A stretch of 64,000 nt of DNA. It comes from a virus. The stretch lies in the IMG/VR virus record IMGVR_UViG_3300022661_000003; one strand, 5' to 3'. Both the position numbers and the translations under genes were made by a program. Below are positions 6,001-48,056 of the stretch, in pieces. Under the pieces are notes generated by a model. That model was not told where the DNA came from. It saw nothing but the letters and a program-made list of their open reading frames with translations, and made no database searches. Position 1 is the stretch's first letter; each line of letters starts with the position of its first letter.

Positions 6001-6026
6001 GACTCGCTGATGCTCGCGGAGCTTAA
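1..6026 (+). CDS. Giant virion/tail structural protein, 5' partial (>2000 aa), putative tape-measure-like; read through many in-frame TAG codons
   Basis: All track ORFs 48, 801, 1701, 1953, 2355, 5157, 5553 share frame 0 and end at TAG. Frame 0 is open from nt 3 and ends only at TAA TAA (6024-6026). An AGGAGA RBS plus ATG of the next gene follows at 6054. The protein has long coiled-coil-like Lys/Glu-rich stretches. Position upstream of Dit/Tal-like genes suggests a tape-measure protein. Confidence 0.6.
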
Positions 6027-6053: not shown

Positions 6054-6440
6054 ATGACTTTAACTTATATGCAACTTTCATCTATTCTTGAGGCTCTTAA
6101 AGAGCTTCAAGAAATGAAGATGTCATTTAAACTTAGTTTAATTATTGCTAAGAATATTGAAATGCTTGAAAAAGAAGAAGAATTTTATATTCGTCAAGAG
6201 CAAGAATTTGCAACGAAATATTTGCAGAAAGATGAACAAGGAAATTTTATTCAAAGTTCTGCGAATACTTTTCAAATTATTCCAGAATTACTAGATGAAT
6301 GCATGGAAGCTCGTAAAGAACTTGACAGTTTTACAGTAGATGTAAATTTGCATTTAATTCCAGTAAGTTTAATTGAGAATATGGATTTTACTCCTGCTCA
6401 AGTGAAAGGATTAACTTTAATTATTAACGAGGAGGAATAA
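6054..6440 (+). CDS. Hypothetical protein (128 aa), no in-frame TAG
   Basis: Intact track ORF preceded by AAAGGAGAAAAAGGAT RBS. It sits between the giant gene and the next tail gene. Confidence 0.6.
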   Translation: MTLTYMQLSSILEALKELQEMKMSFKLSLIIAKNIEMLEKEEEFYIRQEQEFATKYLQKDEQGNFIQSSANTFQIIPELLDECMEARKELDSFTVDVNLHLIPVSLIENMDFTPAQVKGLTLIINEEE

Positions 6441-6441
6441 T

Positions 6442-9400
6442 ATGGCTCGTTTATATCCACCTAGCGTGGCGGGCACATTACCATCTTGTTATAATTATCC
6501 AGAGGGGATTGTCACTTTGACAATCCCCTTTTCTATGAATAAGACGGTAGCGGCACGCGCAATTAGTAGTTTTAGAGTAAGAATTAAAACAACTTCGACT
6601 GATAGAGTAATTGCTGATTGGCCTGAAAGTAGAGGTGCGGCAACACTTGATGATATTAATCCAGTATTAACAACTCAAATACCAACTGCATATATTCCTC
6701 AACTACGAGTCGGCAATTATTATAAAGTATAGATTGCTTATGTTGATAGTGAAGGAGTTATTGGGTATTATTCTTCTCTAAGTATTATTAAATATACAGG
6801 TAAACCAACAGTTCGTATTGCCGATTTATCTATTTCATATACTAATTTAGATATGACGGCGTATGTTGGTGAATATTTTAATCAAGAAGATCCAACTGAA
6901 ATTGTATATCAATATAAGTTTTTATTATATAATGATGCAGGAGCGATTATTGAAAATTCTGGTTGGCGTATTCATAATAGTTATGAAGATGAACAGGCTG
7001 GTCAATCACGAGATACTTATGTTCTCAAAACTGCTCTTGAATTAACTAAAACTTACAGAATTCAATATTGTATTATTACAAATAATAATTTAGAATTACA
7101 TTCACCTCGTTATATGATTTGCCAATCAGATTCAATTGAACCATAGCTTAAAGCTAAAATTTTTACAACGACTGATTATGATAATGGTTCAGTAACAATT
7201 ACTTTATTAGGTGATTTAATTGATGAGGACGGCAAAGAAGAAGTAGCAACAGGTACTTTCTTAATTTAGCGTTCATCTTCTTCTGATAATTTTACATCTT
7301 GGGTAGATGTATTAAATTTTAAATTAACAGGTGAATTCCCTTCAAATTTTGTCTTTCATGATTTTACTGTTGAGTAGGGAGAAACTTATCGATATTCATT
7401 ATAGCAATACAATGATTATGGTATTTATTCTCGCCGAATTTTAGCAGAAGATATTTATGTTGCTTTTGAAGATGCATTTTTATTTGACGGCAAACGGCAA
7501 TTAAGAATTCGTTATAATCCTAAAATTGCTTCTTTTAAAACTACATTATTAGATTCTAAAAAGAATACAATTGGCGGAAAATTTCCTACCTTTTTTAGAA
7601 ACGGTAATGTTGAATATAAAGAATTTTCTATTTCGGGTTTAGTTACTTATTTTATGGATAATGATGAATTCTTTTTTAAGAAAGATGAAATAGGATTTGG
7701 TGGCTGGGAAAATACTACCGATATTATTGACGCCAATATTTATCTTGAGCGACAATTTAAATTAGCAGTATTAGATTGGCTTAATAATGGAGAAGTAAAA
7801 CTTTTTAGGTCCCCGCAAGAAGGTAATTATATTGTTCGTTTAATGAATACGACTTTAGCTCCAAATGATTCTTTAAGTCGTATGCTTCATACTTTTACCT
7901 GCTAGGCTAGTGAAATTGCAGATTTTAATACAGAAAATCTGACTAAATATAATTTAATTCAAACTGTTCTTGAGCCTGTACCTGAAATGAGATGGCGTTC
8001 TATTAATCTTGCTTAGTGGTTAAATGAACGTATTACTCTTCTTTCAAAAGATCCTAATTATAAAGGTGTAGGTCGCAATGAATTAGTACAGTAGGCTCGT
8101 AGAGATATACGAAATGGCACTCATGATTTAGCAGAAGGTAAACCTATTTATTATATTAAAGTTGAAGATGTTCCGTCTGGCACTAAACTTTTATTGGGGC
8201 ATCAAGAAATTTTAATTGGCGCGACAGGTTATTATGAAGCTTTTTATGAAGAGCCAATGTATAATTTGCGAGTAAGTTCTATTAATGTAGATGAGTCAAA
8301 TGAATCGGCGGTTCCTGAATCTGTGTATGAGGGAATGAATGGTACTATTACATATGGTACTATGTCTACAGCCACTAATACTTTTGATACAGTTACTTCT
8401 GTAAAAGTAAGAGACGTTCCTTGCAGACAATTCTTTGGCCCGCAAGAAAATCTATTGGCAGAATGGAACGATATTCGCTTAGAAGTTTAGCGTGTTTATT
8501 ATGCTCGTTTCGTCGCACGGCATTTAGAAGAATTAGTATTACCTCTTGATACTACTATTGAAACTTTAAATGCAGTAATAGAATTATTTTCAAAACCTGA
8601 TGCAAAAAATAAAGTATATTATTATACTGAAGATATTATAACAACACCTACTCAAGAATATGATACAAATAAAGATCCAATTGTAGTTGAGCCACAGACT
8701 TTAAAAGTATATTATTTATATTATTATAATGGCCATTATTTGGTTCCTGTTGGGCCTGGATAGACTCAATTTACTGATGAATTTGGTAGCCGGATAGATG
8801 AAGAAGGTAATGTTATACAGACTTATGCGGGAAAAGATTTAATTTTGTTAACTTCTGCTCAAGCAAAATATGCAGAAAGATATGCGGAAGGTTTGTGGAA
8901 TTCTTTAACTCCATATTATGTATATTATACGAAAGAAGTTAATAAAGATAATTCTCCTGAAGGGAAAGAACCTAATTTATCTGACGGCTTAATTGATTGG
9001 AAATATACATATTATATGTTGGGTGAGACCGAAAATGGAACTAGTTTAATTCAATTAGAAAATTATGATACTACAGTAAAATATCATAAGTCTATAATTA
9101 ACGTTGCTGATATTGATGAATATTATATTCCAGATTTGGATTATGTTCCAGATGATATTAGTATTGGCAGTGGTGTATATGCCGAAATTGGTTTACAATA
9201 TCGAATGATTAGTTATTATTATGAACAATATCTTAGTGATCCTAAAGTTAATGACAGTAAATTGCAATGGTTAGAGGCAGAAGAAGCATATAGAACTGGT
9301 GTATTAAAAATGATTTAGGCTACTAATTAGACTGAACCATCTCGAAATACTGTTCTAGAAACCGTTAGTCCTTGTTATTATTTTGACACAGAAGAAGTTG

Positions 9401-22407: not shown

Positions 22408-25400
22408 ATGGGCATTATGGATTCTCCAGTAAGATTTTTCAAAGGCTCTAAATCTGCCATTGACAATTTTTAGGGAATTGAAGATGGAAGATTGTTTTTT
22501 GCGACAGATACAAAATAGATAATGCTTGACTGTAATTTTACAGACAGCGAAGCAAATAACTATAATAAGAGAATTACTTTTGGTGGGTCTACTGGTATTC
22601 ACTATGCAAATCGCACTTTCACAGAAGATGAAATTGCAGCTGATTTGTATGTCTTTTCCATTTTAGATGGTCATATCGATCAAGAAGGAGAAGAACTTCC
22701 TGAGATTGATGATCTAATTTTGAACGTAAAAGATGGCTCATTTTATCGTGTCACAAGACGAGATGAAACAGAGCTTACTGTAGAAGCTACTAAATTGACA
22801 ATTTCCGGTTCTGGTGGCGGCGGTGGAACCGATGGTGGCGGTGGATATATTTCACGTACGCTATTATCTGATCGTACCTTATATGCCACTAAAACTTCTG
22901 CGAATATTCAAATGAAATATACTTGTTATTCTACTGCAGATGGCGCAAGTATTCGTGCTACAGTGTATGTTGGTACGGGCAGTGGCAGAAAACAAGTTGA
23001 TTATTTCCCAGAAGTTAGCCAAGAAGAACCCAATATCGTTAACATTGCGGAATATATGTCTACTTTAAAATTGAATGCCGCCAACACAATTACCATTCAA
23101 TTAGAAGATGATTATGAAAATTCCATTTCAGTATCTTGTACTGTATATGTTTATGATATGTATGTTACTCTTGTTGGTAGTAGCATGATTTTACCCCAAG
23201 AGAACGATTTTACTTTCCAGGTTCGTCCATATGGAGGCCAAGAATTATCTAATCGCGCATTAGTATATGAATTGCGTCAAGCAGGTAGTGATTCTGTTAT
23301 TGCGAAAGAAATTGAATATACCACTGCTGACAATGGCTCTTCTGCGAATAAAACTATTAAAAAGCAAGAGCATGGCGAATATACTTTAACTGTATATTTA
23401 CAAGGTTAGATTCCTAAATCTGAAGAGTATTTAACTTCTCCTCCTATTCAAATCGAAATTCCATTTTATAATGCGAATGCTTCTTCTCCTCTAATTACTG
23501 CCACTTCAGGTATTACTTCTGCCACACAGTACGATAAAATTAAAATCGATTACATGATTACATATGGAGCAACAAGTACTTCATACGTTAAATTGTTAGC
23601 AGAATATGATGAAGGCTTTGGCTCTCGCGTAGTCGGAGAAGAAATGATTGTTGAAATCAATAATAAGGAATTCTATAATTGGAATGTAACTTTTGATAAA
23701 GCTGCAACTTATTATTTATCAATTATTTATTTGGATTCAAACCAAAATGAAACCGATTATGCCAAAATCTTTACTCCAATTATTGTTGAATCTTTTGATG
23801 AAGAAGTTCCAGTAATCAATACTGCTGATCCATCATTAATGTTATACTTCACCTCTAAAGGTAAGTCTAATAATAGCCAAGATAAAGATACTTGGGTTTC
23901 TAAGTATTATGGTGGAGAAGTAAAAGCACAATTTTCTAACTTTAACTGGAACACTAATGGTTGGATTGAAGGCCCAGACGGTTTAGGTTTACATCTTACC
24001 AATGGCGCAAAAGTAGTTATTCCTTATTCTCCATTTAAACCTGATAGTAACGGTTTGGGTGCAGAAAATTTAGGTCGTACTATTGAATTAGATTTCAAGA
24101 TTTCTAATGTGCGCGATGAAATGGCTCCTGGTATTCAATGCCGTTCTTACTATACAGCTGAATTAGATGATGGCACCAAAGAAGAAATTACCCAAGTAGG
24201 TTTTTAGATTTATGGTAATAAGAGTCAGATGAACTCTGCTTAGGTAAAATCTAAAATTACTGATATGAGTGGATGGACTACGATGTTCAAAGCAGGAACA
24301 CGTATTCATTTAACCTATGTTATTAATAGTGTAAATGATACTCCTCCTCGTATTTTTTATACTTTCTTAAATGGTGTTACTTCTTCTCTATCTGCTTATA
24401 CAGAAACAGACCAATTTATTGACTTATCTGAAGATAAAGATAAAAATATTTTCGATTCTGAATTTATTTTTGATTCTTCATATATGGATATTGATATTTA
24501 TTCAATTAGAGTTTATCAATCTTCATTGAGACCAAATGATGTTCTTCGTAACTGCATCGCAGATAAATCTTCTGCTACTGACGCAGCAGCAGAATGGAAA
24601 TAGAATGATGTTTTAACTACCTTCGAAGATAGAACAACTGGTATTGACCTTGAAGAAGTTATAAAGCTTGGCAATATTCCTTATATGGTATTTTATGATG
24701 GTCGTGATACCGGTAGTAAGAAAGATGAAGGCTGGGAAGACCCTGATTTTGAAGACGGCGAATTCCCGACTTCTGATGAATCTAGATTGCCAACTGGTAA
24801 AAAGGACTTCCGTCACATGGAAATGTATTATGTTGACCCAATTCGTGGTGAAAAATATAATATTGGTACTCCTGATAGTCCAGTAATTGTTACTTGCTAC
24901 GCTCAAGGTACTTCCTCTCTGGAATATCCTGTCAAGAACTTGCGTATTTATTTCCGCAAGAAGGATGACGGCAATCACCCGAATCAAATTGCTAAATATT
25001 CTTTAGAAGATAAACTTCCCGCTGTTAACTTGTTTACTTTAAAAGCAGACTACATGGAATCTGCTAGTGCTCATAATACTGGTACTGCTAATATTTTGGA
25101 TGAACTTTATAATTCAATTGGATTAAAGAGTCCTGCTGCGGCAGCTTATCCAGATAATAGAATTGTAACTGCGATTTTGGGACATCCTATTGTTTGTTTC
25201 TATAAGCCATATAAAGCAAGTGCAGAATTCCCGGATCGTTATCAATATATAGGTCGTTATAATTTTAATTTAGATAAAGCTACTCATGAATTATTCGGTT
25301 TTGAATCCGAAATGGAGGCATATGGTTCCCAGAAGAAACCTTGGGGCTATTTACAGAATGCGGATGGCTCTTTAAGAGACGGTTTTAATACAGCTCTTGA

Positions 25401-28400
25401 ATTTACCGATGGAAAAGTATATTATTCTGAACCTAACTTAGAATCCACTAAAATTGAATTCACTCAAGCTACAGAAGAAGACCGCGAAAAGGCATTTGGT
25501 AAGCAAGCTGCTATTGGCCCAATGTATGAATATAAGAGCGCAGAAGAAGGCGTTACTTGTGTTCAATGTTGGGAGTTCTTAAATAATACTAGTCCATTAG
25601 TTGGATTTAGAGAATATTGGGATGAAGAAGTAGATAAAGTTGAAATAACTCATAAAGATGATACCGGAAAAACTGTAGTAGATCATGCTCCTTATGCTGA
25701 CTGGACAGGCGCTTTTGAATCTCGTTATCCAGAACATGAAGAGGAAGCTTCAACTGATAAACGTACTTTAGCAAGAATGTTAAACTGGGTTGCATCTACT
25801 AATAGACATCCTGACGTTGTAGCAAAAGAATTAGCAGAACAGGGAAAAGATACTTCTCCTGAAGCTATTAAAGCAGAACAAGAAGCCAGATTAAATAAAT
25901 TTAATTTAGAATTTGCTGAATATTTTGTTCCAGATTTTGTTGCTTTCTATTATGTCATTACAGAGTTTCTTCTTATGATTGACTCTCGTGCTAAGAACAT
26001 GATGATGGCATGTTTTGATGCCGATCCAGAAAATAATACTGGACATTGGATGCCTATTTTCTATGATATGGACACAATGCTTGGTGTTGATAACTCTGGT
26101 AACTTACGTTTCCCATATAGCCAAGAGGATAATCAACTTGATACTTTTAATGCCGCAGGTACTTATGATGCTACTCAATATAGTGTATTGTGGTGTAATT
26201 ATCGAGATGCTCGTTTTGGCGATATTAAAGCTATGTATCAAAAATTACGCAAAGGTGGAGTATTTAATTATAATCGTCTTTTAAGAGCTTATAACGCTGA
26301 TCAAGCAGACGCTTGGCAAGAAGTTTATATTAACGAAGACGCCGATTATAAATACATTGATCCTCTTGTTAGCGGATATGAAGTTTGGTTCGATCCAGAA
26401 GGCAATATTATTACTGCTGAAGAAGCAGCAAAAATTGAAGGCGCTAAGAAGAAGAGTGCTGCAAACTATTTATATGCCGCTCAAGGTACTCGTTCGCAGC
26501 ATCGTAATTATTGGTTAGAAAAGCGCTTTAATTATTTAGATTCTAAATATAATTATTCTCAAGAGGTATTAGGCTCTTCTGCAGGTTCTGGTTTGAACTT
26601 CCGTTTGAATTCTGACCTAGCACAAGGCGCAGGTAAGCCCAAGTTCTCTGGTGACTTTGATTTCATTTCATTAGCAGACCAATATGTAACTGTTGACTAT
26701 GCTCAAGGAAATATTGTTGGTCCTGTTCGAATTTATGCAAATCAGCCTTATCATGTTGATAGTCCTTTTGAGACATCGACTGACCAAGAAATGTATATCT
26801 ATGGTCTTGATGATATTGTTGAACTGGGTGACCTTTCTACCAAATACTTTAATAAGTTCCAGTTAAATAAGGCAACAAAATTACGTAAATTAATTCTTGG
26901 TTCTCACGAAGGTAATTTCAGTAATCCGAACCTTGGTACGGCAAATATTTTTAATATTGGTGAGAAGGGAGCAAATGTTCCATTCCTAGAGGAAATTAAT
27001 ATTGAAAATTGTTCCGGTATTAAAGATGCTTTGGATTTGTCTGCTTGTCCTTATTTACAAAAAGTATATGCAAAAGGCTCAGCAATTACTACTGTAAATT
27101 TCTATCCCGGTGGAAACTTATAGCACATAGAATTGCCATCTTCCACTACTGCTCTCTCCTTGAACGGCCAATTGTTCTTTAATACTAAAGATCATCCTGA
27201 AAATTTGAGCATTGAGAGCTATCGTAGATTAGCAAAAATGCATATTACTAATTGTCCTCTTGTTGATTCTAAGACTTTGTTTAAGAATACTATTTATACT
27301 GCTAGTTCAGGTAATGATGTTAGCTCTCTTTTAAATATTCGCTTAGATGATTTAGATTGGACTTTTGACGTAGATGAATGCGTATTTAAAGATAATGTTT
27401 TAACTAATATTCCACTATTAGATATTTTGGTCACTTTAAATGGTCTAAATACTGCAGGTAACAATATTACAAGAGCAGATATGAATAATGACTATTTGGC
27501 AGGAACTATCACTATTCTTAATGGCAATAATTATGGTATTAATGAATTGACACTATATGAAAAGTATAGTATTTTATTCCCTAATTTACAATTTAAGTAT
27601 ACAGAAAATAATTATTGTACAAAAGCCTATTCTATTAATATTAATAATGCTCAATCACAAATTCTTTATTCTTATTCAAAGAAAATTAAAGCTACTGATA
27701 TTGCTACATATAGTGAGAATTTAGAATCTTGGTTCACTCCAGTTGTTTTAGAGTATAATGAGATTGTAGATGAAGTAACAGGTGAAGTTTCTCGTGTTCC
27801 AAAAAATTATGACGAAACAAATCATTTGCCTCCTCTTGTAAAACAATCTACAGCACAGTATATTTATGATTTCCGTGGCTGGGGATTAGAGAAGCCATTA
27901 GATTTCTCTGAACGTGATTATACTTCTGACGAGAGAGAACAAGCTATTGCAGATTCTCTCGCAATTAAAGTATCTTATACTATTGATGAAGATAATAATT
28001 ATACCTATACCGCAGAAAAAGTTAATGGTTTTGAATTGAACATAGATGCATTTGGTACTGACCAAGAAATTAATTTTTATCCAGTTTACGCCGCAGATTT
28101 GAACACTCATATTGTTCGTTTCTACGATGGTATAAATAGTGAGCCATTAAAGGTTGAGCGTGTAAAATATGGTTAGTCAGCGACTCCTCCTCAGAATCCG
28201 CAGAAACTTGAATTGCCCGAAAACGATAAGACAGTTGCTTACTCTTATCCTTTTATTGGTTATAATCTTCCTTACGACAATATTGTTATGGAGCTTAATA
28301 CCATCGCCCAATATGGTACAAAGAAACCTTTATCCAAAATGACAGGCGATGAAATTAGTCGAGATTACTTCAAACCTGCGAGTGTTAGTGAAGGTGTAGA

Positions 28401-29405
28401 TTATCTTACCAGTGATGAAATCGCTATTGGTATTAAACCTGACTTTGCAGACGAGGCTATTATTATTCCTTCTACTTATGACGGAAAACCTGTTGGTCTA
28501 GTTAGAGTAGAGTATGGCGACTAGCAACCTAAGAACTTACGTCGTATTTTCTTCGAAGAAGGAAATACAATTAAGGTTATCGGCAATAATTTTATGGCAG
28601 AAAACAAGAATATTGAATTCTGTGATTTGTCTGCTCTTGGCTCATTATCACTTATCGGTATTCAAGCTTTTATGAATTGTTTTAATTTAACATTTAAGTC
28701 ACTGCCGAATAGCGTTACAAAAATTGACACTAATGCTTTTGCTTATTGCTCTTCAATTAATTTTTCTGCTTTACCTGATAAGTTAGAATCATTAGGTCCT
28801 AATGCATTTAGGTCTTGTGAATCTTTAGGAGAAATTACAATTAATAATACTTAGCTCACACAAATCCCTGATTACGCTTTTGAACGTTGTACTAATCTTA
28901 AGATCAAGGGCGAAACTATCAATTGTTTAGTTACTACAATTGGTTAGTATTCATTTGATTATTGTAGTAATTTAGTTTTGAATTTTGATATTGATTCTAC
29001 TAATAGACTATCTACAATTAAAGATTTTGGCTTCGGTCATACTCCAATGTTAAATATCAATAATTTCCCAAGCAATCTTACTTCTATCGGCACTTCAGGT
29101 ATGAGTTCTGTAAATGGTGCTGGAGGCTTGTTGACAGCTAATGTAATTCCTAAGACTGTTACCTCAATCGGTGGTGGCGCATTTATGTTTAGAAAATTGG
29201 CAGATGAAAATCTTGGTATCCTTATTATCGAAAATCCAAATATTATTTTAGCAGATAGTGCTTTCTCATATTTGTCAGGGGTAAAGGAAATTTGGGTTCC
29301 AAAATCTGTTGATTTAAATAGTGCTCCTTGGAATTCTGAAACTTGTTTTGGATGTACTCAATCCTCTCCTGGTGTTATTATAAAACACAATCCTAATGGC
29401 TAATG
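22408..29405 (+). CDS. Giant mosaic receptor-binding protein (~2330 aa): fibre N-terminal domain, TAG-free CotH-like core (24685-27123), then BspA-type leucine-rich repeats; TAG recoded
   Basis: Track ORFs 22522, 23554, 24265, 24685, 27133, 28213, 28594, 28978 are all in frame 1. No TAA or TGA occurs in that frame until TAA at ~29403. The RBS AAAAAGGAGGACTCTAA precedes the ATG. A CotH-like motif SRAKNMMMACFDADPENNTGHWMPIFYDMDTMLGVDNSGNL is present. C-terminal repeats have the BspA-LRR pattern (IPKTVTSIGGGAF, NAFAYCSSIN). Confidence 0.55.
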
Positions 29406-36921: not shown

Positions 36922-39528
36922 GTGGCTAGACTATTAAATTTTAGAAATGAACCATAGGTTACAGCGATTACTATTCCTAATCGTATTTAGTTATCAGATA
37001 CAAATTTTGCTCAAGCTTTTCGAAATATGGCTAATTTACAATCAGTTACTATTACTCATCCTAATATTACAATTTTAGATTAGGCATTTGAAAATGACAA
37101 AGCATTACAAACATGTACATTTCCAGAACATAATAAAATTACATCTATGTATCGTGCATTTAATGGGTGTTCTAATATGACTAGTGCTCCTTAGAGTGGA
37201 GCAGAAGTTATTAATATGGCTTATGCATATTATAATTGCTATTCTATGACTGGTAATGCTCAATGTGGTCCTAAAGTTTTTAGTATGTCTCATGCATATA
37301 CTAATTGTAGTAATATTTCAGGCCCAGCAGCTTGTTCTAATAGTGTTCGCAATTTTGATTATGCTTATCATAATTGTACTAAATTAACTGCTGCGGCATG
37401 TGGCGCAAATGTTACTAATATGGATTATGCTTATTATAATTGTACTAATTTAACTACTGCGGTGTGTGGATTAAATGTACCAACTATGAATTATACATAT
37501 TATAAATGTTCTAAATTAACTGATGCTGTATGTGATCGTAATGTTGTAAGTATGAATTATACATATGCTTATTGCACTAATCTTACTACAGCTAACGTAG
37601 GACGTAATGTTACAGAATTAAAATCAACATATAGAAATTGTATTAAATTAACTGATGCTGTTTGCGGTCCTAATGTTATAGAGATGGTTAATACATATGA
37701 AAACTGCACTAATTTAACTACAGCCGCATGTGGAAATTAGGTTACTTATATGAATGGTACATATGCTAATTGTCATAAATTAGTTACTCCTATATGTGGA
37801 CCAATGGTAACTTTAATGGATCACACTTATAGTAGTATGAGTTAGAGCTCATTATAGACGAATAGTGGTTCATATATATATATAAATAAGCGTTATTATC
37901 ATGGTACAGGTTGTAAAAATTTAACTACTGCAGTATGTGGTGAACGAGTAACAAATATGTATTATACATATGCTAGTTGTGCAAATATTACAACAGCAAT
38001 TTGTGGAGACCAAGTTACTGAAATGATTGGTACTTATGGTAATTGTGTTAATTTAACAACTGCTGCTTGTGGACCATCTGTAACCTTGATGGATTCTACA
38101 TATTCTATTCCTTATGGTTTTTATGCTAGTGGCCGTTATAAAAATAATAATGGCATTCCAGGAATTTTATATTCAGAAGAAACTGGTACAATCGGTGATA
38201 CCTGGTATGGATGTTCAAGTTTAACCGAAGCAGTTTGTGGAGATTCAGTAGTAATGATGGTTAATACATATCGTGAATGTACTAATTTAACCACTGCAGC
38301 AAGTGGTCCTGTTGTTACTTTAATGGATAACACTTATACTAATTGTTTTGTTCCCGCAGTTGTTCCTGATAATAGTCTAACAGCGTATAATCTTTACTCT
38401 GATGGATTAGGTTTAGTAACACCTATTTGTGGACCATTAGTTCAAGAAATGAGATATACTTATGCTAATTGTCAATCTTTAACATCATTTGTTTGTGGAG
38501 CAGAAGTAAAAATAATGGATCATACTTATGCTTTGGCCGAATCAGACTACTCTGATTGGTTCCTTGGCGATGAAACATATACCATAACTGAAAATAGAAC
38601 TGCAAAATGGAGACAATCGGTTAGTGCAAAACGTGGGCCAACTACTCCAGTATGTGGCGCAAATGTTACAGATATGATAGGTACATATAAAGGCCGACAT
38701 AGTTTAACTTCTGCGGTATGTGGTGCTAATGTAGTAAATATGATTGAAACTTATGCTGGATGCGCATATTATATTTCTAAAATGATAGAATATTATAATG
38801 CAACTTGGGCTTCAGGCGAAGATCCAGATTATGACACATATAATTATTCAATGGATTATCTGAATTATTCTTCTGGCATTACTACTGCAGTATGTGGAGC
38901 AAATGTAATAAATATGCATGGTGCATATATGTATTGTAGCGGTATTACAAATAAAGCAGCTTGTGGAGCAAACGTAGTGGATATGTCTTATGCTTATGCT
39001 TATTGCGGAAGAGAAAATTATTTCTTTAACGGCAAATCTGGCGTAGATACATATGGTTATGGTGGTTTGAACACTCCAGTTGTTGGTGCGAATGTAGTTA
39101 ATATGCAAGGTGCATATATGGATTGTTATCCTATTGGTACCGCAAAATGTGGTGCAAATGTTGAAGATATGTCTTGGGCCTATTATAATTGTAGAAGTTT
39201 AACGACTGGTGTATCAGGCGCAAATGTTACTAATATGAGTTATACTTATGGTTATTGTCTAAGCTTGAAGGGTAATTTAAATATTGCATCTGAATATGTA
39301 TATGATGCTTATGGTATTTTTGAAGGTCGAGGATATAATATTGCTGGAGATGAAATTACTCCAACCTTATTAAACATTCGAGTGCCTTATGGTTCTACTA
39401 CTTTTGATTCTTTTTATAATGAAGATTTATGCGGAGAAGGTAGAATTGTTTGGGACACAGAAGATGATACAGGAACAACTTGGACCTGTACAAATACTCG
39501 TTATAATTTAAAATTAATCGGAGCTTAA
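36922..39528 (+). CDS. Cys-rich LRR-like repeat protein (~869 aa): BspA-like N-terminus then >20 tandem ~22-aa repeats with consensus NVxxMxxTYxxCxNLTxAxCG
   Basis: Track ORFs 37216 and 37957 are in frame 1 with GTG 36922 (AGGAGGGTAAAAA RBS), joined by TAGs. The repeats are obvious at nucleotide level. A (TA)6 microsatellite sits inside the gene at ~37872-37885. Confidence 0.55.
37872..37885 (+). repeat. (TA)n dinucleotide microsatellite inside a coding region
   Basis: catatatatatataaa lies within the repeat-protein gene. Confidence 0.6.
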
Positions 39529-39554: not shown

Positions 39555-40604
39555 ATGAAAAAATATAATCGTAATATTGATATTATTATTCCTGCTTATA
39601 ATGTAGCAGATAATATTTTGTTTAGATGTCTGGCTAGTATCGCTTGCCAAGATATTATTTCTGAATTAGAGGTTACTATTGTTGATGATGCTTCTACAGA
39701 ATAGAATTATCAAAATGTAATTAATTAGTTTTCTTCAATGTTAAAAATTAATATTTTACGCTACGAAACTAATGGTGGACCAGGAGTAGCTCGTCAATAT
39801 GGTTTAGATCACACTTCTAATGGATATATTACTTTTATTGACGCTGATGATACTTTCAATGGTGCTTTTGCTCTTAAAGCTTTGCGCAATGCTATTGAAA
39901 TGAATAATGGTTTATATCAAATGTCAGTTGGAGTTTTTGATGAAGTACATGAAACAGACATTCCTGAAGGAACTGGACCAATGTTAATGAGCCACGAAAA
40001 AGATTTAGTATGGATGTTCGGTAAAATGTATCGTCGTAGCTTTATTGACAAATATGGTATTCATTTTCATGAGACTTCAAGAGCCAATGAAGATAATGGA
40101 TTTAATACTTGGTGCCGCCTTTGCATGAATGATAAAGAGTAGATTAACTTTATTGCTGCACATGTTTATTATTGGCATGAAAATTTAAATAGTATTACGA
40201 GAATTAATGATCATCAATATAGTTATGGTAGTTCAGATCGAGATAGTTTTTACGGTTATGTTGAAAATATGATTTTTGCAATTCAAGAGGCAAAAAAGAA
40301 AAATCCTTACAATGGTTTTATTACTATGTGGGCTGTAACTTGTATGATACATTTATATCAATATTATATTGAATGTGCTGCAAGAGCTCCGCAACATGCT
40401 CCAGGTAATTTAAAACAATGTAAAAAATATTATGATGCAATTTTTAAAGAACTTGAACCTACAATTTCAAAAGAAATTATGGCATAGCATTATAATGATA
40501 TAATGAAAAATGCTTATATGGGAGATAAGTTAAATAATATTATTCCTTGTATAGGTTTATATGAGTTTTTAGATAAATTAAAGGAGGAAAATACAGATGG
40601 CTGA
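39555..40604 (+). CDS. Family-2 glycosyltransferase (~349 aa), TAG recoded
   Basis: AAGGAG RBS. Carries IIIPAYN...VDDAST and FIDADD motifs (GT2 DxD). Track ORFs 39738 and 40269 are in frame 0 joined by TAGs. The TGA overlaps the next ATG. Confidence 0.7.
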
Positions 40605-41277
40605 CGCTTATAAAATTTATACTTCTAGCTTAGTTGGTATTCAAGATGGTGGTACTGACGGCAGTACTGCAGCAGAAGCTAGAGAAAATTTAAATGTAGT
40701 TGGTTATACTGTTGTTCCCGAACTCAGTGGAGGCTCAGATTTTGCCTCCACTGAATTTTTACCAATAGCTGGTGGAACGATGACAGGACCGCTTACTTTA
40801 GAAGCTGATTTAATTGGTATTGACGGTGACTTTTCTGGTACTTTAAGCGCTTCAAGTGTAAAAGGTGCGGTATGGAATGATTATGCCGAATATCGTATTT
40901 TAAATGGTAAAAATGAAGCTGGCAGATGCGTAATTGAAACAGGCAATGATGATTTAATTTGGTCTCATGAACGCATGTTACCAGGAGCTATGATTATTTC
41001 CGATACTTTTGGATTTTCTATAGGAGAGACAGAAAAAGCTACTGCTCCAATTGCTGTGGCTGGTAGAGTATTAGCATATCCTAATGAAGATCGTTCTACA
41101 TATAAAGCGGGCGACGCAGTATGTTCTGGTCCTTATGGTACTGTTTCTAAAATGTCTAGAAAAGAAATTATGATGTATCCAGAACGTATTATTGGTATCG
41201 TTTCTTGCGTTCCTACTTATGAAATTTGGAATGATAAAATTCAAGTTAATGGTCGCATTTGGATAAAAATAAAATAA
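40597..41277 (+). CDS. Tail fibre-like protein (226 aa), TAG-free
   Basis: Intact track ORF. Fibre-like segments TAAEARENLNVVGY and GGTMTGPLTL. Confidence 0.55.
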   Translation: MADAYKIYTSSLVGIQDGGTDGSTAAEARENLNVVGYTVVPELSGGSDFASTEFLPIAGGTMTGPLTLEADLIGIDGDFSGTLSASSVKGAVWNDYAEYRILNGKNEAGRCVIETGNDDLIWSHERMLPGAMIISDTFGFSIGETEKATAPIAVAGRVLAYPNEDRSTYKAGDAVCSGPYGTVSKMSRKEIMMYPERIIGIVSCVPTYEIWNDKIQVNGRIWIKIK

Positions 41278-41291
41278 AGGAGGTATTTATT

Positions 41292-41630
41292 ATGAAATTA
41301 ATTATTCAAGGACAAGAGCAATATCCAATTAAAATTAATAAATATCATCGTAATTTTATGAAAGTACATACTTATGCAGGCGCAGTTAATTTTGAATTAG
41401 AAATAGATAATGAACTTGAAAAAAATATATAGTTTTTGCAAGCATTATATGGTTAGAGTAAATAGATTGAGCAAATTCAGGTATTTAGTGATAAAGACAT
41501 GTTAATTGCATTTTTAGTTTTTGAAAATGGTTATATTAGTAATTTGACTGATTCAATTAACGAAAAAGGCAAGCGAACTGTTTTGTTTACTATTACTTTT
41601 GAAAGTCTTAATCCTATGATTTTTTCTTGA
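41292..41630 (+). CDS. Hypothetical protein (~112 aa, 3 TAG)
   Basis: AAGGAGG RBS. Ends at TGA. Confidence 0.4.
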
Positions 41631-41660
41631 CTTTTAAAAAAAAATATGGTATTATTTTAA
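41626..41660 (+). promoter_or_regulatory. Sigma-70/SigA-like promoter (TTGACT-17-TATTAT with an upstream TG) driving the radical-SAM operon
   Basis: TTGACTtttaaaaaaaaatatggTATTAT lies ~20 nt upstream of the AAAAGGAGGG RBS of gene 41678. Confidence 0.5.
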
Positions 41661-41677
41661 AGAAAAGGAGGGTTATA

Positions 41678-42193
41678 ATGGCTCAAATACTTTTCGATGA
41701 TTACCTTGCTGCAAAAACAGCGGTATATAATATGTGGGATGAAGTGTTTGGAATTAAAATTAATTGGAATTTATTTGCTACTGACACTTAGGCCAATAGT
41801 CGTAGATCAGAAAATACATATGATGAAGCAGATAAAGAAGAACATACAGTACCATCTGAAGTTGCTGTATTTCCAGACGAGCGTACCGAAACAAATATTA
41901 AGCCGCTAAATTAGGCATATCGTTTTAACGAAATTAATAGTGCAGAAAAAAATGGTAAAATTACTGCCGACGCAGTAAATGCTTTATATAATTTAATGCA
42001 GGTTGCAGAAGAAGAAGCTCATAGTGGCGCTGGTTATGGAGCAGATAAAACTACACACTGGTAGACTTATAATAGCTCTAAAAATACTTCAGTAAAAACA
42101 TCTTAGTATAGTGGTTATGACTCATATAATAGTAATCGACATTCTGGTTGGTGTACCGGTCGTAATTCTAGTAATATGGGAACCAACTGGTAA
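41678..42193 (+). CDS. Precursor-like protein A1 (~171 aa) with a Tyr/Ser/Asn-rich C-terminal tail
   Basis: Strong AAAAGGAGGG RBS. Four in-frame TAG. The C-terminus ...HW(Q)TYNSSKNTSVKTS(Q)YSGYDSYNSNRHSGWCTGRNSSNMGTNW is paralogous to that of the 42208 gene. Confidence 0.5.
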
Positions 42194-42207
42194 GGAGAGT
42201 ATTAATA

Positions 42208-42507
42208 ATGGCGTATAATTGGAATAATATGTTTGGAACTATAGTTGAAAAAGATTAGTCAATAAAGCATGAAAATAGTTTAAACCATATTATAGAAACA
42301 GCTACAGAGTATCTAGAATACCATTGTTCAGCTCATAATACAGAAAAATTTGCTTCTTGGGATGTAACTTATAATGGTACATTGAAGTCTAGTCATGATT
42401 CAACTTATAAAAGTTATAATTCTTATAATAGCGGCAAGTTAAGTACAAATTATTCTGGATATAATAGTAGTCATAGGTATTCTTATTTTGGAGGAAATGT
42501 AGGATAA
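42208..42507 (+). CDS. Precursor-like protein A2 (~99 aa), shortened paralogue of A1 with a Tyr/Ser/Asn-rich tail
   Basis: The N-terminus YNWNNMFG matches YNMWDEVFG in A1. The tail is SWDVTYNGTLKSSHDSTYKSYNSYNSGKLSTNYSGYNSSHRYSYFGG. The TAA overlaps the ATG of the next gene. Confidence 0.5.
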
Positions 42508-43883
42508 TGGATTACGAGAAAAAGGCGTTAGAACATTGTGTATCACTTTCATTGCATTGGTCTTCTGATTGTAATATGGCATGTTAGTATTGTTATATTG
42601 AAAAAGATAAAAAAGCAATGGCAACCTATAATAAAGCATTACGAGAAGCTTTAGAAAATGGTACATATGTTAATAATATAAAAAATAAATTTGAACATAT
42701 TAAAGATAATATTGAAAATTTAAGTTTGTGGGGTGCAGAACCTACAATTAATGGTATATATTTTAAAGATACTATTTATCAATGCTTAGATTTTTTTCCA
42801 AATGTACATTCTTTAATGTTTTCGACAAATGCATTGTTAGGTGCAGATATTATTTACGAACAATTTTATTTACCTTTATTAAGTTATGCAGAAACTAATT
42901 CACGTCCTCTTACTTTTGAATTACAGCTAAGTTTAGATGGTCCTCCTGAATTTAATGATAAATCACGTCATGAAGGAGCCACTAAAAATACTTTAAATAC
43001 TTTATATACTTTACTTGAAAGAACTCCATTTAATTGTAAATATTTTAAATTTAGCGTTTCTACTAAAGCCACTCTTGATATTAGTTATATGAGAGAAATG
43101 GTTGAAGGTGGAATAGAAAAATTTTAGTGGTATTATGATTTCATGAATGAAATTCATGGAAAAGCACATGATATTATTAAAAATAATTCTACAGTTAGTG
43201 ATTGTCATGTATTTGGAATACCTACATTAGTAGATCCAGGATATTATACAGTTGAAGATGGTAAAATATTTGCAAAATGGATATCAATGTTAAAATATGT
43301 AGACCGTAGTAAATGGCATGAGGCAAGTCAACATGTACCATTGTTTTATTAGTGTTTAAATACTGTTCTCGAAGCAGAAAACATACACAATCCTATTGCT
43401 TAGGGATATAATTATTTTTCTTGTTCTTCCGGAAAATATAATTATAGTGTTGATTATGATGGTACAATATATACTTGTAATCGTTTATGTCGAAATGCAG
43501 CTTTATCAGATAATTTAAAATATAAAGGATCTATGCTTTCTAACTCTAATGTGGATCATCCTGCTGGCTCAAAATGGTTAAAACGTAATTATGCTAATTG
43601 GGTTTTTCATGAAGATATTGTAGCTCGAAAAAATTTTTTAGATGCATTAATTTTTATGATGGCTAAAGCTGGCTAGATTGATAAATTATATATTGAAAAT
43701 GATGAAGCTCGATTAATAATGTTTTATATGATGAGCGGTATTTATTGTCATATAGGAGCAGAAGAAGATTATACAAGTAATCCTTTTATTCCTCCTGCTA
43801 GTTATTTGCGCTTATTGGGAAATGGAGCTCAATAGGAGTTGGAAAATTATTTTAAATTAGAAAGAGTAAGAGGAGTTTTGTAA
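42507..43883 (+). CDS. Radical SAM / SPASM-domain enzyme B1 (~459 aa, 5-6 in-frame TAG)
   Basis: N-terminal CNMAC(Q)YC matches the CxxxCxxC radical-SAM cluster motif. LWGAEPT is GGEP-like. C-terminal Cys cluster CSSGKYNYSVDYDGTIYTCNRLCRN is SPASM/twitch-like. Track ORFs 42618 and 43143 share frame 0. Confidence 0.6.
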
Positions 43884-45253
43884 TGGAAAATTGTATTATT
43901 AATACTACTGGTTTAGAAGCTTATCAATATGAAAATTAGAAATTGGCAGACAATTTTTTAGAAACATATTTTTTCTCTAATTTTAAATATAGTCATACAG
44001 CTTCTAAAAAATCTTTAGAGTTAATTATTTCTCCCAAATGTAATTTAGGATGTAAATATTGCTATATTCATAAACATAAAAAACATATTTTTAATGAAGA
44101 TATTTTTAATGAAGAATTAACATTAAAAAATTTAACTTTAATTTTAAAATGGCTTGAAAAAAATGAATTTAATCCAGATTTAGATATTTTTTCAGGAGAA
44201 TTATTTGCTTAGGAAATTGGTCTAAAAATTTTACAAGTAATTTATGATCATGAGTTACATTTGCCTGAACATTTAAGATGCAAAGTTATAACAATTCCTA
44301 CAAATTTTACTTTTTTAAATTCTGATACATTGACAGAAAAAATCACTAATTTTCAAAAATAGTTTGAACAAATTAATATCCATTTATTTTTAAGTGCGAG
44401 TTTTGATGGAGCTCATATGGAACAAAATCGTCCTTATACCAAGACATTAGATTTTGATATTAATACCTCTCGCGATGATGAATATTATAATAAAGTTTTT
44501 CAATATTGTAGTGAACATCAATATGGATTACATCCAATGATTTACAGTAAAAATATTGCTAAATGGAAAGAAAATTTCTTATGGTTCCAAGAAAAAATGG
44601 AACAATTTAATATTCCTTGGGAAAATTTATATTTACTTAATGTTCGCAATGAAGAATGGGACGATGTCAGTTTAAAAGAATATTATAATTTTATTTTGTT
44701 CTTATATGATTGGGTATACCAAAAAGTTGGATGTAACACAGAATATTTAGTAAATTTTATTCTAAAAGCACACGGTTTTAATATAATGGCTAGTCCTTTA
44801 ACTCGAGTAGGAAGAGGCTTAACTTGTGGTTTATAGAATACTTTATGCGTTCGACTTAGTGATTTAATGGTTTATCCTTGCCACAGGACAGGATATGAAC
44901 ATTATTATTGTGGATAGTTCATAGAAGATGAGGATAAAATTTTAACATATAAAAATAAAAATGCTGAATTGCTAATTACAGTATATTCTGTTAACAAAGA
45001 AGGAATGCCCATGTGCTCTCAATGTCCTATTAATAAATTATGTGTAGGACAATGTTTAGGAGCTTGTCATGAAAGTAATAACAATTTATTTGTACCAATT
45101 CCTTCCGTTTGTGCTACCGTATATACATTATTAGCAGCAACTATTGAAGGTCTAACTAAATATCAAGCTTATGATTTACTGTTATCTCAAGTTGATGCTT
45201 CAATAGCAAAGCAATTAGAGTTTGTGAAAAAGGAGTTAAATAATGTTAAATAA
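43883..45253 (+). CDS. Radical SAM / SPASM-domain enzyme B2 (~456 aa, ~6 in-frame TAG)
   Basis: SPKCNLGCKYCY matches the CxxxCxxC motif. The C-terminal CSQCPINKLCVGQCLGAC matches SPASM. Track ORFs 43943, 44417, 44969 are in frame 2. The start overlaps the B1 stop (TAATG). Confidence 0.6.
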
Positions 45254-45821
45254 TTTTGTAAAAATGACTTATGGCGAAGCTCGTCATGAAGTATTAAAAG
45301 AATTAGATAATAGAGGTCCAATTGGTAGTTTTTTATTATCTCGCCATCCAGACTTGACAAATATAATTGAATATGTTTGTCGTTATTTAGAAAAAGCAAT
45401 GACTCCTGATAGTGATCCTAAAGATTTAGGAAATTTTCCGAGTAATATTAAAACTAGTTTGGAATTTTTAACTTTAAGATTTCCATCTTATTTAATTTTA
45501 TATTCAGAACATGATTGGAATTGCTTTTGCAGCGCATTATTCTTATTGTTAGATAATTTTTTAAATGCTGGTGAAACTTTCATTAATTCTGTTGCCGAAG
45601 ATGATTGGTCTAAAGAAGAAAAAAAATATATCAATCGTATTCGAGAATAGCTCAGTGCGATATTAAGAATTATCGATATCGGTGCTGGTTATAGTGAATT
45701 ATGTAAAGCTTCTGCTTAGATTGTAGAAGAATTAAAAACTTGGTCTCAATCTCGTCCTGCGGCGTTTAAATTATCTGAAGCATATTTAAAATCTCTTGGA
45801 ATCGGAGGAACAGAGGAATGA
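45243..45821 (+). CDS. Hypothetical protein (~192 aa, 2 TAG), rSAM operon member
   Basis: Track ORF 45243..45650 is extended through TAG to TGA ~45819, overlapping the next ATG. Confidence 0.4.
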
Positions 45822-46117
45822 CTTTATATTTTAATAATGAACGTGAACATCCTATTGAGGTTCAAAATGTATCTCGTGAATTAATTGCAGATGCTAACGG
45901 AAAATATTAGATTTTTGTACGCATTATTGTAAATGAAAGATTTAATGACGTTATTGCTTATTGTAATTCTTATGCATCACAAGATATTGTAAGTATGGAG
46001 CTATATAATGGAGAAGAATTAACTAATCATTATACACTAAATGCTGGTAGAGTAAATTCTATTCATGAAGTTGTAGAAAGTACTTCTCAAGAAGTCACAA
46101 TGATTATTGAATATTAA
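45818..46117 (+). CDS. Hypothetical protein (~99 aa, 1 TAG), last gene of the rSAM operon
   Basis: ATGA overlap with the previous gene. Followed by a hairpin at ~46122-46150. Confidence 0.4.
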
Positions 46118-46121
46118 TAAT

Positions 46122-46150
46122 TAGGCGATGTTTTTTAACATCGCCTAAAT
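46122..46150 (+). terminator. Stem-loop, putative operon terminator
   Basis: AGGCGATGTTTTTTAACATCGCCT perfect hairpin. The downstream U-run is weak. Confidence 0.45.
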
Positions 46151-46983: not shown

Positions 46984-47109
46984 ATGTCTATCTTTAAAAA
47001 GAAAAAAATTGATGAAGAATTAGAATTTGAAACTGCTGATACAACAGAAAATGATGAGCAGGTTTGGATTCGAAAGGATGGAAAATTAGTTTTAGTTGAG
47101 GAGGATTAA
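46984..47109 (+). CDS. Small acidic protein (~41 aa)
   Basis: AAGGAGG RBS then ATG. Ends immediately before the endolysin RBS. Confidence 0.3.
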   Translation: MSIFKKKKIDEELEFETADTTENDEQVWIRKDGKLVLVEED

Positions 47110-47111
47110 AA

Positions 47112-48014
47112 ATGGTTACAATTAAATTGAATACTCAAGATAAAATGGTAACTATGTTACAATACACCTTCAATACTAAAGTAAGTGGAACCGCAGATGC
47201 AGAATTTGTATCTGCGGTTAAATCTTATCAAAAAACCAAGAAACTTACTGCTGATGGTATTGTTGGTAAAAATACATATAAGGCTCTTCTTGATGATTTC
47301 CCAACTCTTAAAAAGGGTAAGAATAAAAAAAGTAATTGGAATAGAGCTTGGCAGTCATTTCTTGGAGTAAAAATTGATGGTATCTTTGGTTCTGATACCA
47401 AGAAAGCCACTAAAGATTGGCAAAAGGCTAATGGTCTTACCGTTGATGGCGTTGTAGGAGATGCCACTCTTTCTAAGGCTTTTGGCATTACCGTTTCCGT
47501 TTCCGCGCCGAGCACCTCTAACGGCACTTCTGTTGTAAATAAACAGCCTGTAAATTATAAGCAGTATGATTCTCGCTGGGGTAAAATCGTTTACACCAAG
47601 AATAATACCTATGACAAGAAACAGACTATTAGTAATTCTGGATGCGGTCCTACCGCCGCGGCAAATATTGTTGCTACTTGGTGGGATAGTTCCGTTACTC
47701 CTGCTACTCTTGCCGCTTTATCTGTAAAGCATGGCTATCGCACTTCTAATAGTGGTACTGCTTGGGGATTCTTTAAATTTATTGCTGAAAAATATGGCGC
47801 CTCTAAATTCGTTCAGACTAGCTCATATGCTACTGCTGAAGCCGCAATTAAAGAAGGCGCTTATGTTGTATGTTCCGTTGGTCCTGGTGTTTGGACTAAA
47901 GGTGGTCACTTTATTACTTGGTGGAAAGTTGATAATACTTATGTATATATTAATGACCCAGCAAGTGCTAGCTCTTCTCGCGCTAAATCTAAGAAGAGTA
48001 ATCTAAAAAATTAG
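47112..48014 (+). CDS. Endolysin: tandem peptidoglycan-binding (PG_binding_1-like) repeats plus a C-terminal C39-like cysteine peptidase/amidase domain
   Basis: Intact 300-aa track ORF. Repeats TADGIVGKNTYKALL and IDGIFGSDTKKATKDWQKANGLTVDGVVGDATL. Catalytic-Cys motif NSGCGPTAAANIVATWW. GAGGAGG RBS. Confidence 0.75.
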   Translation: MVTIKLNTQDKMVTMLQYTFNTKVSGTADAEFVSAVKSYQKTKKLTADGIVGKNTYKALLDDFPTLKKGKNKKSNWNRAWQSFLGVKIDGIFGSDTKKATKDWQKANGLTVDGVVGDATLSKAFGITVSVSAPSTSNGTSVVNKQPVNYKQYDSRWGKIVYTKNNTYDKKQTISNSGCGPTAAANIVATWWDSSVTPATLAALSVKHGYRTSNSGTAWGFFKFIAEKYGASKFVQTSSYATAEAAIKEGAYVVCSVGPGVWTKGGHFITWWKVDNTYVYINDPASASSSRAKSKKSNLKN

Positions 48015-48056
48015 AAAAAACAATTCTTTATTTTTTATAAGTAAGGAGAGAGTCAA

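Follow-up and report, generated by a model that had tools for sequence, protein, structure and literature searches.

Two radical-SAM enzymes beside repeat-tailed proteins in phage tail modules: a candidate protein maturation cassette

The 64,000-nucleotide stretch of DNA analyzed here, from virus record IMGVR_UViG_3300022661_000003 and referred to below as the window, contains a six-gene cassette that encodes two small proteins with repetitive tails (A1 and A2), two putative radical S-adenosylmethionine (SAM) enzymes (B1 and B2) and two further small proteins (C1 and C2). Maturation of ribosomal peptides by radical-SAM/SPASM enzymes is well known in bacteria, and the cassette is apparently a new, well-defined and undescribed phage-specific variant of radical-SAM protein maturation. 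We found no published description of it in our searches of the literature, in which the sole relevant paper concerns the bacterial HXS system (PMC13128918), nor any described phage system in which enzymes and substrates are encoded together inside a tail module. The features of the cassette are as follows:

41627..41655, + strand: promoter-like site, TTGACT-17 nt-TATTAT with an upstream TG, 10 of 12 positions matching; a candidate only
41678..42193, + strand: A1, 171 aa, 4 TAG codons; long-form repeat-tailed protein
42208..42507, + strand: A2, 99 aa, 1 TAG codon; short-form repeat-tailed protein
42507..43883, + strand: B1, 458 aa, 6 TAG codons; putative radical-SAM enzyme with a twitch-like auxiliary region
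43883..45253, + strand: B2, 456 aa, 5 TAG codons; putative radical-SAM/SPASM enzyme
45243..45821, + strand: C1, 192 aa; conserved partner protein, apparently helical in sequence
45818..46117, + strand: C2, 99 aa; small accessory protein
46121..46148, + strand: 12-bp stem-loop directly 3' of the C2 stop codon; terminator candidate with a weak T tract

An earlier prediction, made from the sequence alone, had proposed these six genes at the same coordinates and had stated that all of them need TAG read-through. Both points are confirmed: the genes are recovered when TAG is read as Gln, and each contains in-frame TAG. The genes are tightly packed, with A2 and B1 overlapping through TAATG, B1 and B2 likewise through TAATG, B2 and C1 by 11 nt, and C1 and C2 through ATGA, while the Shine-Dalgarno sequence AAGGAGG precedes A1. 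Of the promoter-to-terminator transcription unit that had been proposed, the promoter end is a candidate only: promoter-like sites occur at chance frequency in this AT-rich window (64 found vs. 56 ± 8 expected from shuffled sequence, i.e. no enrichment).

The window has a G+C content of 34%. When TAG is treated as a sense codon, open reading frames (ORFs) with 100 aa or more add up to 77.4 kb instead of 53.6 kb, nearly all on the + strand, and form an unbroken run of abutting genes. The 41 genes called on the + strand all end in TAA (35) or TGA (6), and their in-frame codons include 161 TAG, 91 CAG and 324 CAA. In alignments with homologues that include standard-code sequences, TAG falls on invariant Gln columns at residues 110 and 318 of B2 and residue 390 of B1, so that TAG is a Gln codon in this DNA. 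Another TAG, codon 27 of B1 (42585-42587), lies inside the CxxxCxxC motif (C-N-M-A-C-TAG-Y-C); the enzyme cannot be made without read-through. There are no tRNA genes in the 64-kb window, hence no suppressor tRNA is encoded there. Annotation pipelines that use the standard code fragment all six cassette genes.

The radical SAM superfamily is marked by a CxxxCxxC motif that binds the [4Fe-4S] cluster within a partial TIM-barrel core. Both B1 and B2 carry this motif, by which they are assigned to the superfamily. The Cys residues of the motif are invariant in alignments of B1 with 12 homologues (Cys 22, 26 and 29; 13 sequences) and of B2 with 22 homologues (Cys 53, 57 and 60; 23 sequences). The original prediction had placed this motif near residue 20 in both enzymes, which is correct for B1 (22-29) but not for B2 (53-60), and had ascribed a SPASM-type Cys cluster to both. 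The SPASM criterion used here was Cx9-17Gx4C ... Cx2Cx5Cx3C ... C, the arrangement that binds two auxiliary clusters. B2 has the complete set of seven Cys, all of which are invariant among the same 23 sequences (C315, C333, C378, C381, C387, C391 and C410), and scores 23.7 bits with the SPASM model TIGR04085 (cut-off 27). B1 lacks the full seven-Cys motif; in its C-terminal part only C306, C324, C414 and H368 are invariant among the 13 sequences, as would be expected of a twitch-like domain that binds one auxiliary cluster. Moreover, B1 and B2 can be aligned with each other over only ~26 residues around the cluster motif, and they form two distinct, anciently paired lineages with no recent duplication. 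Although they had been described as paralogues, they are thus not close ones, and the idea of a duplicated A-B/A-B cassette has to be given up: its two enzymes differ, and it includes C1 as a further obligatory part (see below).

Neither enzyme reaches the threshold of any curated family. The best NCBIfam model for both is that of the ranthipeptide maturase PapB (NF047865; B1 at 42 and B2 at 50 bits, cut-off 340). All of the following models score below PapB: DynA of the darobactin/dynobactin type (NF041298; 38 bits and E 8.7e-10 for B1, 20 bits for B2, cut-off 450), the anaerobic sulfatase-maturating enzyme (anSME) model TIGR03942 (36 and 28 bits, E 3e-9 and 1e-6, for B1 and B2; cut-off 349), SCIFF (TIGR03974; 12 and 26 bits vs. 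425), QhpD (~20 bits vs. 453), the triceptide or three-residue cyclophane-forming enzyme (3-CyFE) models for XyeB, YhhB, FxsB and AmcB (12-25 bits vs. 362-450) and HxsC of the HXS system (13.7 bits vs. 267.9). For the HxsB and HxsD models, no match is listed at E <= 1 in NCBIfam. With the curated models of the triceptide, darobactin, ranthipeptide, SCIFF and anSME enzymes, B1 and B2 thus all score far under the cut-offs. In PHROGs, both enzymes match phrog_1802 (E 9e-14 and 9e-10), and profile searches of PDB sequences retrieve radical-SAM structures at E 1e-9 to 1e-10. The nearest of these are CteB (5wgg), which is the best match for both enzymes, ChlB (9gm3) and 8vpo, with anSME (4k37) also found for B1; the nearest solved relatives are thus peptide- or protein-modifying enzymes. 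As had been predicted, no family of the type of the recognition element (RRE) of ribosomally made peptides with post-translational modifications (RiPPs) matched either enzyme (Pfam scan, E <= 1).

A1 and A2 belong to a new family of small proteins, in which an N-terminal helix module is followed by a junction Cys, usually present, and by a repeat tail. In the loci of the cassette (designated below by L numbers), one to three genes for such proteins flank B1, encoding 76 to >585 aa and mostly lying just upstream of it; in L007, they are placed downstream of C1. The module has the consensus [F/Y]xW...G..I......E[IL]R..D and is present twice in the long forms. The junction Cys, found in 26 of 27 A proteins and often written HCPS[NH]Y, is in register with the repeats: the tail starts directly after it, and the Cys takes the N/D position of the first unit. 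A proteins usually hold 1-3 Cys. Autocorrelation of the tails gives a period of 4 (also 8 and 12) in nearly all A proteins, with a maximum of 0.79 at period 4; in the window, the values are 0.39 at period 4 and 0.43 at period 8 for A1, and 0.60 at period 4 for A2. Position-specific profiles define the unit as [G/T/S]-x-[N/D, less often Y/K/R/H/C]-[S/T/A/G], in which the residue at position 2 depends on the clade: some have Tyr or His there and others Val, and the G-E-D-V / G-A-N-T clade has Glu or Ala. The tails of this last clade contain almost no aromatics, and Tyr is not universal in the tails of the family.

The tails in the window are indeed rich in Tyr, Ser and Asn, as had been noted. 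Their repeated Y-x-x units had also been likened to the three-residue cyclophane motifs of triceptides, whose maturases (XyeB, YhhB, FxsB, AmcB and ChlB) are radical-SAM/SPASM enzymes acting on tandem short motifs, and many units of the window clade do hold Tyr, His or Trp. However, the unit here has four residues, its conserved residue is Asn/Asp instead of an aromatic, the aromatic position is variable, and one clade has tails almost free of aromatics, so the triceptide-like reading of the repeats could not be upheld. Acidic DNA mimicry by the GEDV tails was also considered as a general account of the family and rejected, net charge not being conserved across clades.

A2 fits the family fully. 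Its module reads MAYxW...G, residues 18-42 form a helix, Cys40 is the junction Cys (YHC), and the tail has a period of 4 (SWDV TYNG TLKS SHDS TYKS ...). A1 is a divergent long form with a presumably helical N-terminal region and the tail ...TYNS SKNT SVKT SQYS GYDS YNS..HSGWC, in which the motif SGYDSYNSxxHSGWC is kept in the orthologues of L084-L086. The proposed kinship of A1 and A2 holds over helix plus tail (E 4e-4), but the N-terminal match that had been offered in its support (YNMWDEVFG / YNWNNMFG) is not significant (E 0.48). The original prediction had made its case depend on conservation of the tails in related phages, and the tails are conserved: among 7 A2 orthologues, tail identity is 84%, vs. 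55% for the N-terminal part. The tail is therefore the most constrained region of A2. AlphaFold2 predicts window A2 with a predicted local distance difference test (pLDDT) score of 47.5, in which helix 18-42 reaches ~65 and the tail has no confident fold; a monomer model of a 330-aa long-form relative has a pLDDT of 37, with the repeats as coil and no solenoid. In the G-E-D-V clade, the C terminus of the long forms is a conserved cap, GC[PF]x[FYC]..V...DH-COOH, modelled by AlphaFold2 as a short beta-hairpin (examples are P0126, P0129, P0136, P0137, P0142, P0145 and, in L003, 3276-4118), which has no counterpart in window A1. When 1.84 billion representative proteins were searched exhaustively with HMMER, only 49 A-type clusters were recovered, all of 61-187 aa, a word-indexed search with the 46-residue N-module gave four matches only, and no meaningful match to the N-module was found among PDB sequences.

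The positionally conserved Cys in nearly every A protein could be taken as the target of an anSME-like chemistry, in which it would be oxidised to formylglycine, a reactive aldehyde. The anSMEs are protein-modifying radical-SAM/SPASM enzymes, both B1 and B2 match their model weakly, and anSME structures are among the PDB matches of B1. We nevertheless regard this chemistry as very improbable: the bit scores are a small fraction of the cut-off, the CteB and PapB matches are equal or better, no sulfatase gene or C/S-x-P/A-x-R motif is found in the operon or its neighbours, and the Ser at the junction position of window A1 is not kept in A1 orthologues. Such chemistry would also leave the need for two enzymes and the conserved repeat array unexplained. 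The original prediction had mentioned, as an alternative, that the enzymes modify a virion protein in the way of anSMEs; a modified virion protein does suit the tail-module position of the cassette better than a released peptide would, but the anSME part of this proposal is not borne out by the models. The conserved Cys also stands four residues before a D/N/Y position, resembling the C-x3-D motif of PapB, and B2 has the same layout of radical-SAM domain and seven-Cys SPASM domain as PapB and CteB. The cassette differs from ranthipeptide/SCIFF systems in that the A proteins are not Cys-rich (they do not show the six Cys in ~45 residues of SCIFF precursors), no RRE is present, and two enzymes and C1 are required.

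In order to follow the cassette in other phages, we examined the gene neighbourhoods of 25 orthologous loci. The order B1, B2, C1 is kept in all 25, with B2 identities of 33-73%. The loci lie on contigs of very diverse uncultured phages, of 27-50% G+C, that use the standard code (e.g. L003, L005 and L066), TAG recoding (e.g. the window, L001 and L002) or apparent TGA recoding (L008, 27% G+C); a spread over three genetic codes is unusually broad for one accessory module. According to family hidden Markov models (HMMs), C1 is present wherever true B1 and B2 are found (E < 1e-100), while it occurs in 0 of ~55 loci that hold only distant radical-SAM/SPASM genes. Of the 25 loci, 22 have recognizable A genes, 19 by HMM and 3 by inspection (L063, L064 and L084). 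In two of the remaining three, L034 and L067, the contig extends too short a way upstream; the third, L004, duplicates L003 in shortened form and was unchecked by eye. In the reverse direction, all three A-like proteins that were found by sequence alone lead into B1-, B2- and C1-sized genes. The A and B genes are always adjacent, in the same orientation and translationally coupled, and the A genes follow B1-B2-C1 even where the neighbouring fibre gene differs. The adjacency, the coupling and the link in both search directions agree with the earlier claim that the enzymes are maturases with ribosomal substrates of their own.

Outside these loci, metagenomic protein collections contain at least 208 B2 homologues, none of them informatively named and some on contigs of 160-275 kb. 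No cassette match was obtained by DNA or protein search in 50,697 deposited phage genomes, and in the genomes of 185,579 species there is a single true orthologue; the contig that carries it is 11 kb long and was binned with a Candidate Phyla Radiation (CPR) bacterium. It should be noted that a scan of viral contigs with a single B2 protein returned nothing, and that an alignment-based scan succeeded.

C1 constitutes one family, with the motifs LLxxNW and, at the C terminus, PPAFxLSxxYLxxL, and has no conserved Cys or His. Nothing in Pfam, NCBIfam, PHROGs, PADLOC or the PDB sequences matches it, and comparison with the helical protein at the equivalent place of the distant locus L047 shows no relation. 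C2 is conserved among closer relatives only and is replaced or absent elsewhere; BLAST gives no support for its being a paralogue of the small gene at 41292-41630. The substrate family, the partner protein C1 and both enzyme lineages are all unannotated.

The cassette is usually placed after tail-fibre or tail-tip genes. In L082, for example, the order is tail tube (Phage_tube_2), tape-measure-like protein, small protein, 712-aa tail-tip protein, A-long, A-short, B1, B2 and C1. In the window, two genes upstream of the cassette are of interest:

39555..40604, + strand: family 2 glycosyltransferase (GT2; 68.9 bits), three genes upstream of A1; possible accessory modifier
40597..41277, + strand: fibre-like protein with a C-terminal VWNDYAEY...GRIWI domain, linked to the cassette by synteny only

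A protein with the VWND.AE...GR[IV]W domain precedes the cassette in most relatives with enough upstream sequence (e.g. L001 842-3565, L002 1280-2563, L064 1578-3491 and L066 2111-4015). This domain, of ~130 residues and the pattern VWNDYAEYR...SDTFGF.IGET...GRVL.YP...GRIWI, has no Pfam or PHROG match and may be an unannotated fibre-tip or autochaperone domain. Glycosyltransferases recur near the cassette: L034 encodes a GT1 domain fused to the C terminus of B1 (399-2894), and in L035 a GT2+GT1 protein (6386-8239) follows C1. Glycosylation may thus be a further modification of the Ser/Thr/Asn-rich tails or of the fibres. N-glycosylation sequons as a universal feature of the tails were rejected, as they are absent from G-E-N-I-G units.

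The constant upstream fibre gene, together with the glycosyltransferase and sugar-biosynthesis genes nearby, would be expected as well if A1 and A2 were unmodified small fibre or adaptor proteins, possibly trimeric and beta-helical, and B1 and B2 had a different target, such as the adjacent tail fibre, some other protein of the virion, or a sugar or nucleotide needed for glycosylation. In line with such a role, A-long proteins of the GEDV clade match the T4 gp5 beta-helix weakly (PF22178; E 1.6e-5), also among precomputed matches, although the score of 25.5 bits, obtained for a relative only, is under the curated cut-off of 30.9 and arises in low-complexity sequence, and the AlphaFold2 model contains no solenoid. 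The enzymes group with peptide- or protein-modifying SPASM enzymes, not with the radical-SAM enzymes of sugars or nucleotides, and A is coupled to B1 and tracks B1-B2-C1 in spite of a differing fibre gene or, in L007, of its downstream placement. We therefore find it improbable that the A proteins are bystanders to the enzymes.

The N-terminal module of the A proteins recurs in two distant viral loci, L047 (167-4548) and L056 (around 7587), which hold related but distinct cassettes. Their proteins of ~180 aa (187 aa in L047) contain three W..G..I.A.H.NELR.AI modules, then DDC, then CNYCTCN repeats, and the L047 protein adjoins three radical-SAM genes and small helical proteins. The location of these modules beside radical-SAM genes makes it slightly more likely that they serve in recognition than that they are purely structural, and suggests that the NELR-type module could be a general docking element for phage radical-SAM enzymes. 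The gene after the L047 module-repeat protein resembles, by eye only, a tail-fibre chaperone.

From the gene content, motifs, repeat anatomy, co-occurrence and synteny described above, we infer a phage-encoded, four-part maturation system: the A proteins would be modified by B1, B2 and C1, and would probably keep the size of proteins and remain associated with the tail. We hold this to be the probable explanation, with some reserve. The A proteins are proposed as its substrates because of their adjacency to and translational coupling with the enzymes, the two-way co-occurrence, and the kinship of the enzymes with SPASM enzymes that modify peptides or proteins. The helical N-terminal module of A would probably dock onto the enzymes, after which B1, with one auxiliary cluster, and B2, with two, would each abstract a substrate hydrogen via the SAM-derived radical and each install a different covalent modification. 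As a low-confidence guess at the chemistry, the conserved Cys might be joined by a thioether or a similar cross-link, as with PapB, CteB or QhpD, with a further modification at the periodic Asn/Asp. C1 would serve as a non-catalytic helical partner in a role comparable to that of HxsD, and in some phages glycosyltransferases might add further decoration. The product would work with the tail or fibre apparatus, e.g. as a stiffened, protease-resistant accessory of a fibre or adhesin.

The general architecture of the A proteins, a module plus a tail that always lie beside B1/B2, would also fit RiPP precursors, which consist of a recognition (leader) region and a modified core and are encoded next to their maturase. 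In a classical RiPP pathway, the module would be a cleaved leader and the tail a small cross-linked peptide of the daropeptide, triceptide or ranthipeptide-like kind, released upon lysis as an antibacterial or signalling effector. The nearest relatives of the maturases modify RiPPs, B1 matches the DynA model, and the tails lack a confident predicted fold, as RiPP cores do. The window tails YNSNRHSGW and YNSSHRYSYF also appear to resemble the dynobactin core WNSNVHSYRF. The module that L047 and L056 share, ahead of a Cys-rich repeat tail and by radical-SAM genes, fits a recognition module as well. Still, we consider a small released peptide unlikely. The conserved core of the cassette contains no leader peptidase, exporter or RRE, and peptidase genes are only sporadic nearby; the substrates reach 364-585 aa of uniform repeats; the long forms of one clade end in a conserved cap; another argument is the clade without aromatics; the place in tail modules is conserved; and the curated RiPP-maturase models are all ~7- to 35-fold under cut-off. 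The absence of protease, exporter and RRE from the core, the very long substrates, the cap and the constant tail-module place therefore argue for a protein-sized product that acts at the tail.

Precedents exist for a substrate that remains a protein. QhpD forms Cys-to-Asp/Glu thioethers in the small protein QhpC, which stays a structural subunit of quinohemoprotein amine dehydrogenase. Like the enzymes proposed here, it is a radical-SAM/SPASM enzyme acting on a small protein kept protein-sized, but in addition to the low model score, the phage cassette has no dehydrogenase context and QhpC has no repeat array. The closest architectural analogue is HXS, a bacterial, periplasmic anti-phage defence system whose components are HxsA, HxsB, HxsC and HxsD, in which HxsA carries five H-x-S repeats and is matured by a pair of radical-SAM enzymes together with the small HxsD; it is processed and gains +8 Da in one repeat (PMC13128918). 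The parts of the two systems would correspond: both would have a pair of unlike radical-SAM enzymes, a small partner without catalytic activity that binds to one enzyme of the pair, and a substrate of protein size bearing short tandem repeats, with a product that stays a protein. The phage cassette differs in being phage-encoded, in lying in tail modules and in having period-4 N/D repeats instead of H-x-S.

Several observations weigh against the proposed maturation system. The assignment of B1 and B2 as radical-SAM enzymes rests on motifs and on weak, if consistent, matches, with the Pfam radical-SAM model PF04055 scoring 22.2 bits (E 1.7e-4) vs. a gathering cut-off of 29.5. Modification of A by B1 and B2 is a prediction, and the enzymes could act on something else. 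Window A1 has a Ser at the junction position, its sole Cys lying in the tail, and is undetected by the A-module HMM, which finds no further module copy in the window either. AlphaFold2 gives no confident tail structure and no positive sign of a fibre. The PHROG matches of the window neighbours, though of tail type, are weak, and the peptidase genes near some cassettes (L006, L066 and L003/L082) would also fit the removal of a leader.

More tentatively, and doubtful as it stands, the radical-SAM pair could staple or rewrite the four-residue Asn/Asp array, thus turning an unstructured tail into a rigid, protease-resistant fibre or adhesin, with the NELR-type module as a phage-wide docking element. 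If so, no earlier case would exist of a virion component modified after translation by radical-SAM enzymes, and the repeat-directed chemistry at Asn/Asp or Cys would probably be new as well. Modification of the A proteins would imply a new enzyme chemistry on a simple four-residue repeat and a new kind of post-translational modification linked to the virion or to lysis, with possible effects on host range or on stability in anaerobic habitats, and would provide a compact substrate-enzyme pair open to direct testing.

Downstream of the cassette, an endolysin-like protein (47112-48044) combines two PG_binding_1 domains with Peptidase_C39_2. Peptide processing comes to mind in view of the C39-like domain, but a role in lysis is more likely because of the two peptidoglycan-binding domains. 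A conserved 40-aa ORF (46984-47109; MSIFKKKKIDEELEFETAD...) precedes this gene, and the pair also follows the cassette in L001, L084 and L085. Just upstream of the GT2 gene, 37027-39528 encodes an 833-aa protein of ~23-residue Cys repeats (..C..LT.A.CG.NV..M...Y..C..) that resemble leucine-rich or BspA-type repeats. Elsewhere in the window, there are giant ORFs with numerous TAG codons, e.g. at 48-6026 (1992 aa, 34 TAG) and at 22408-29403 (2331 aa, 11 TAG).

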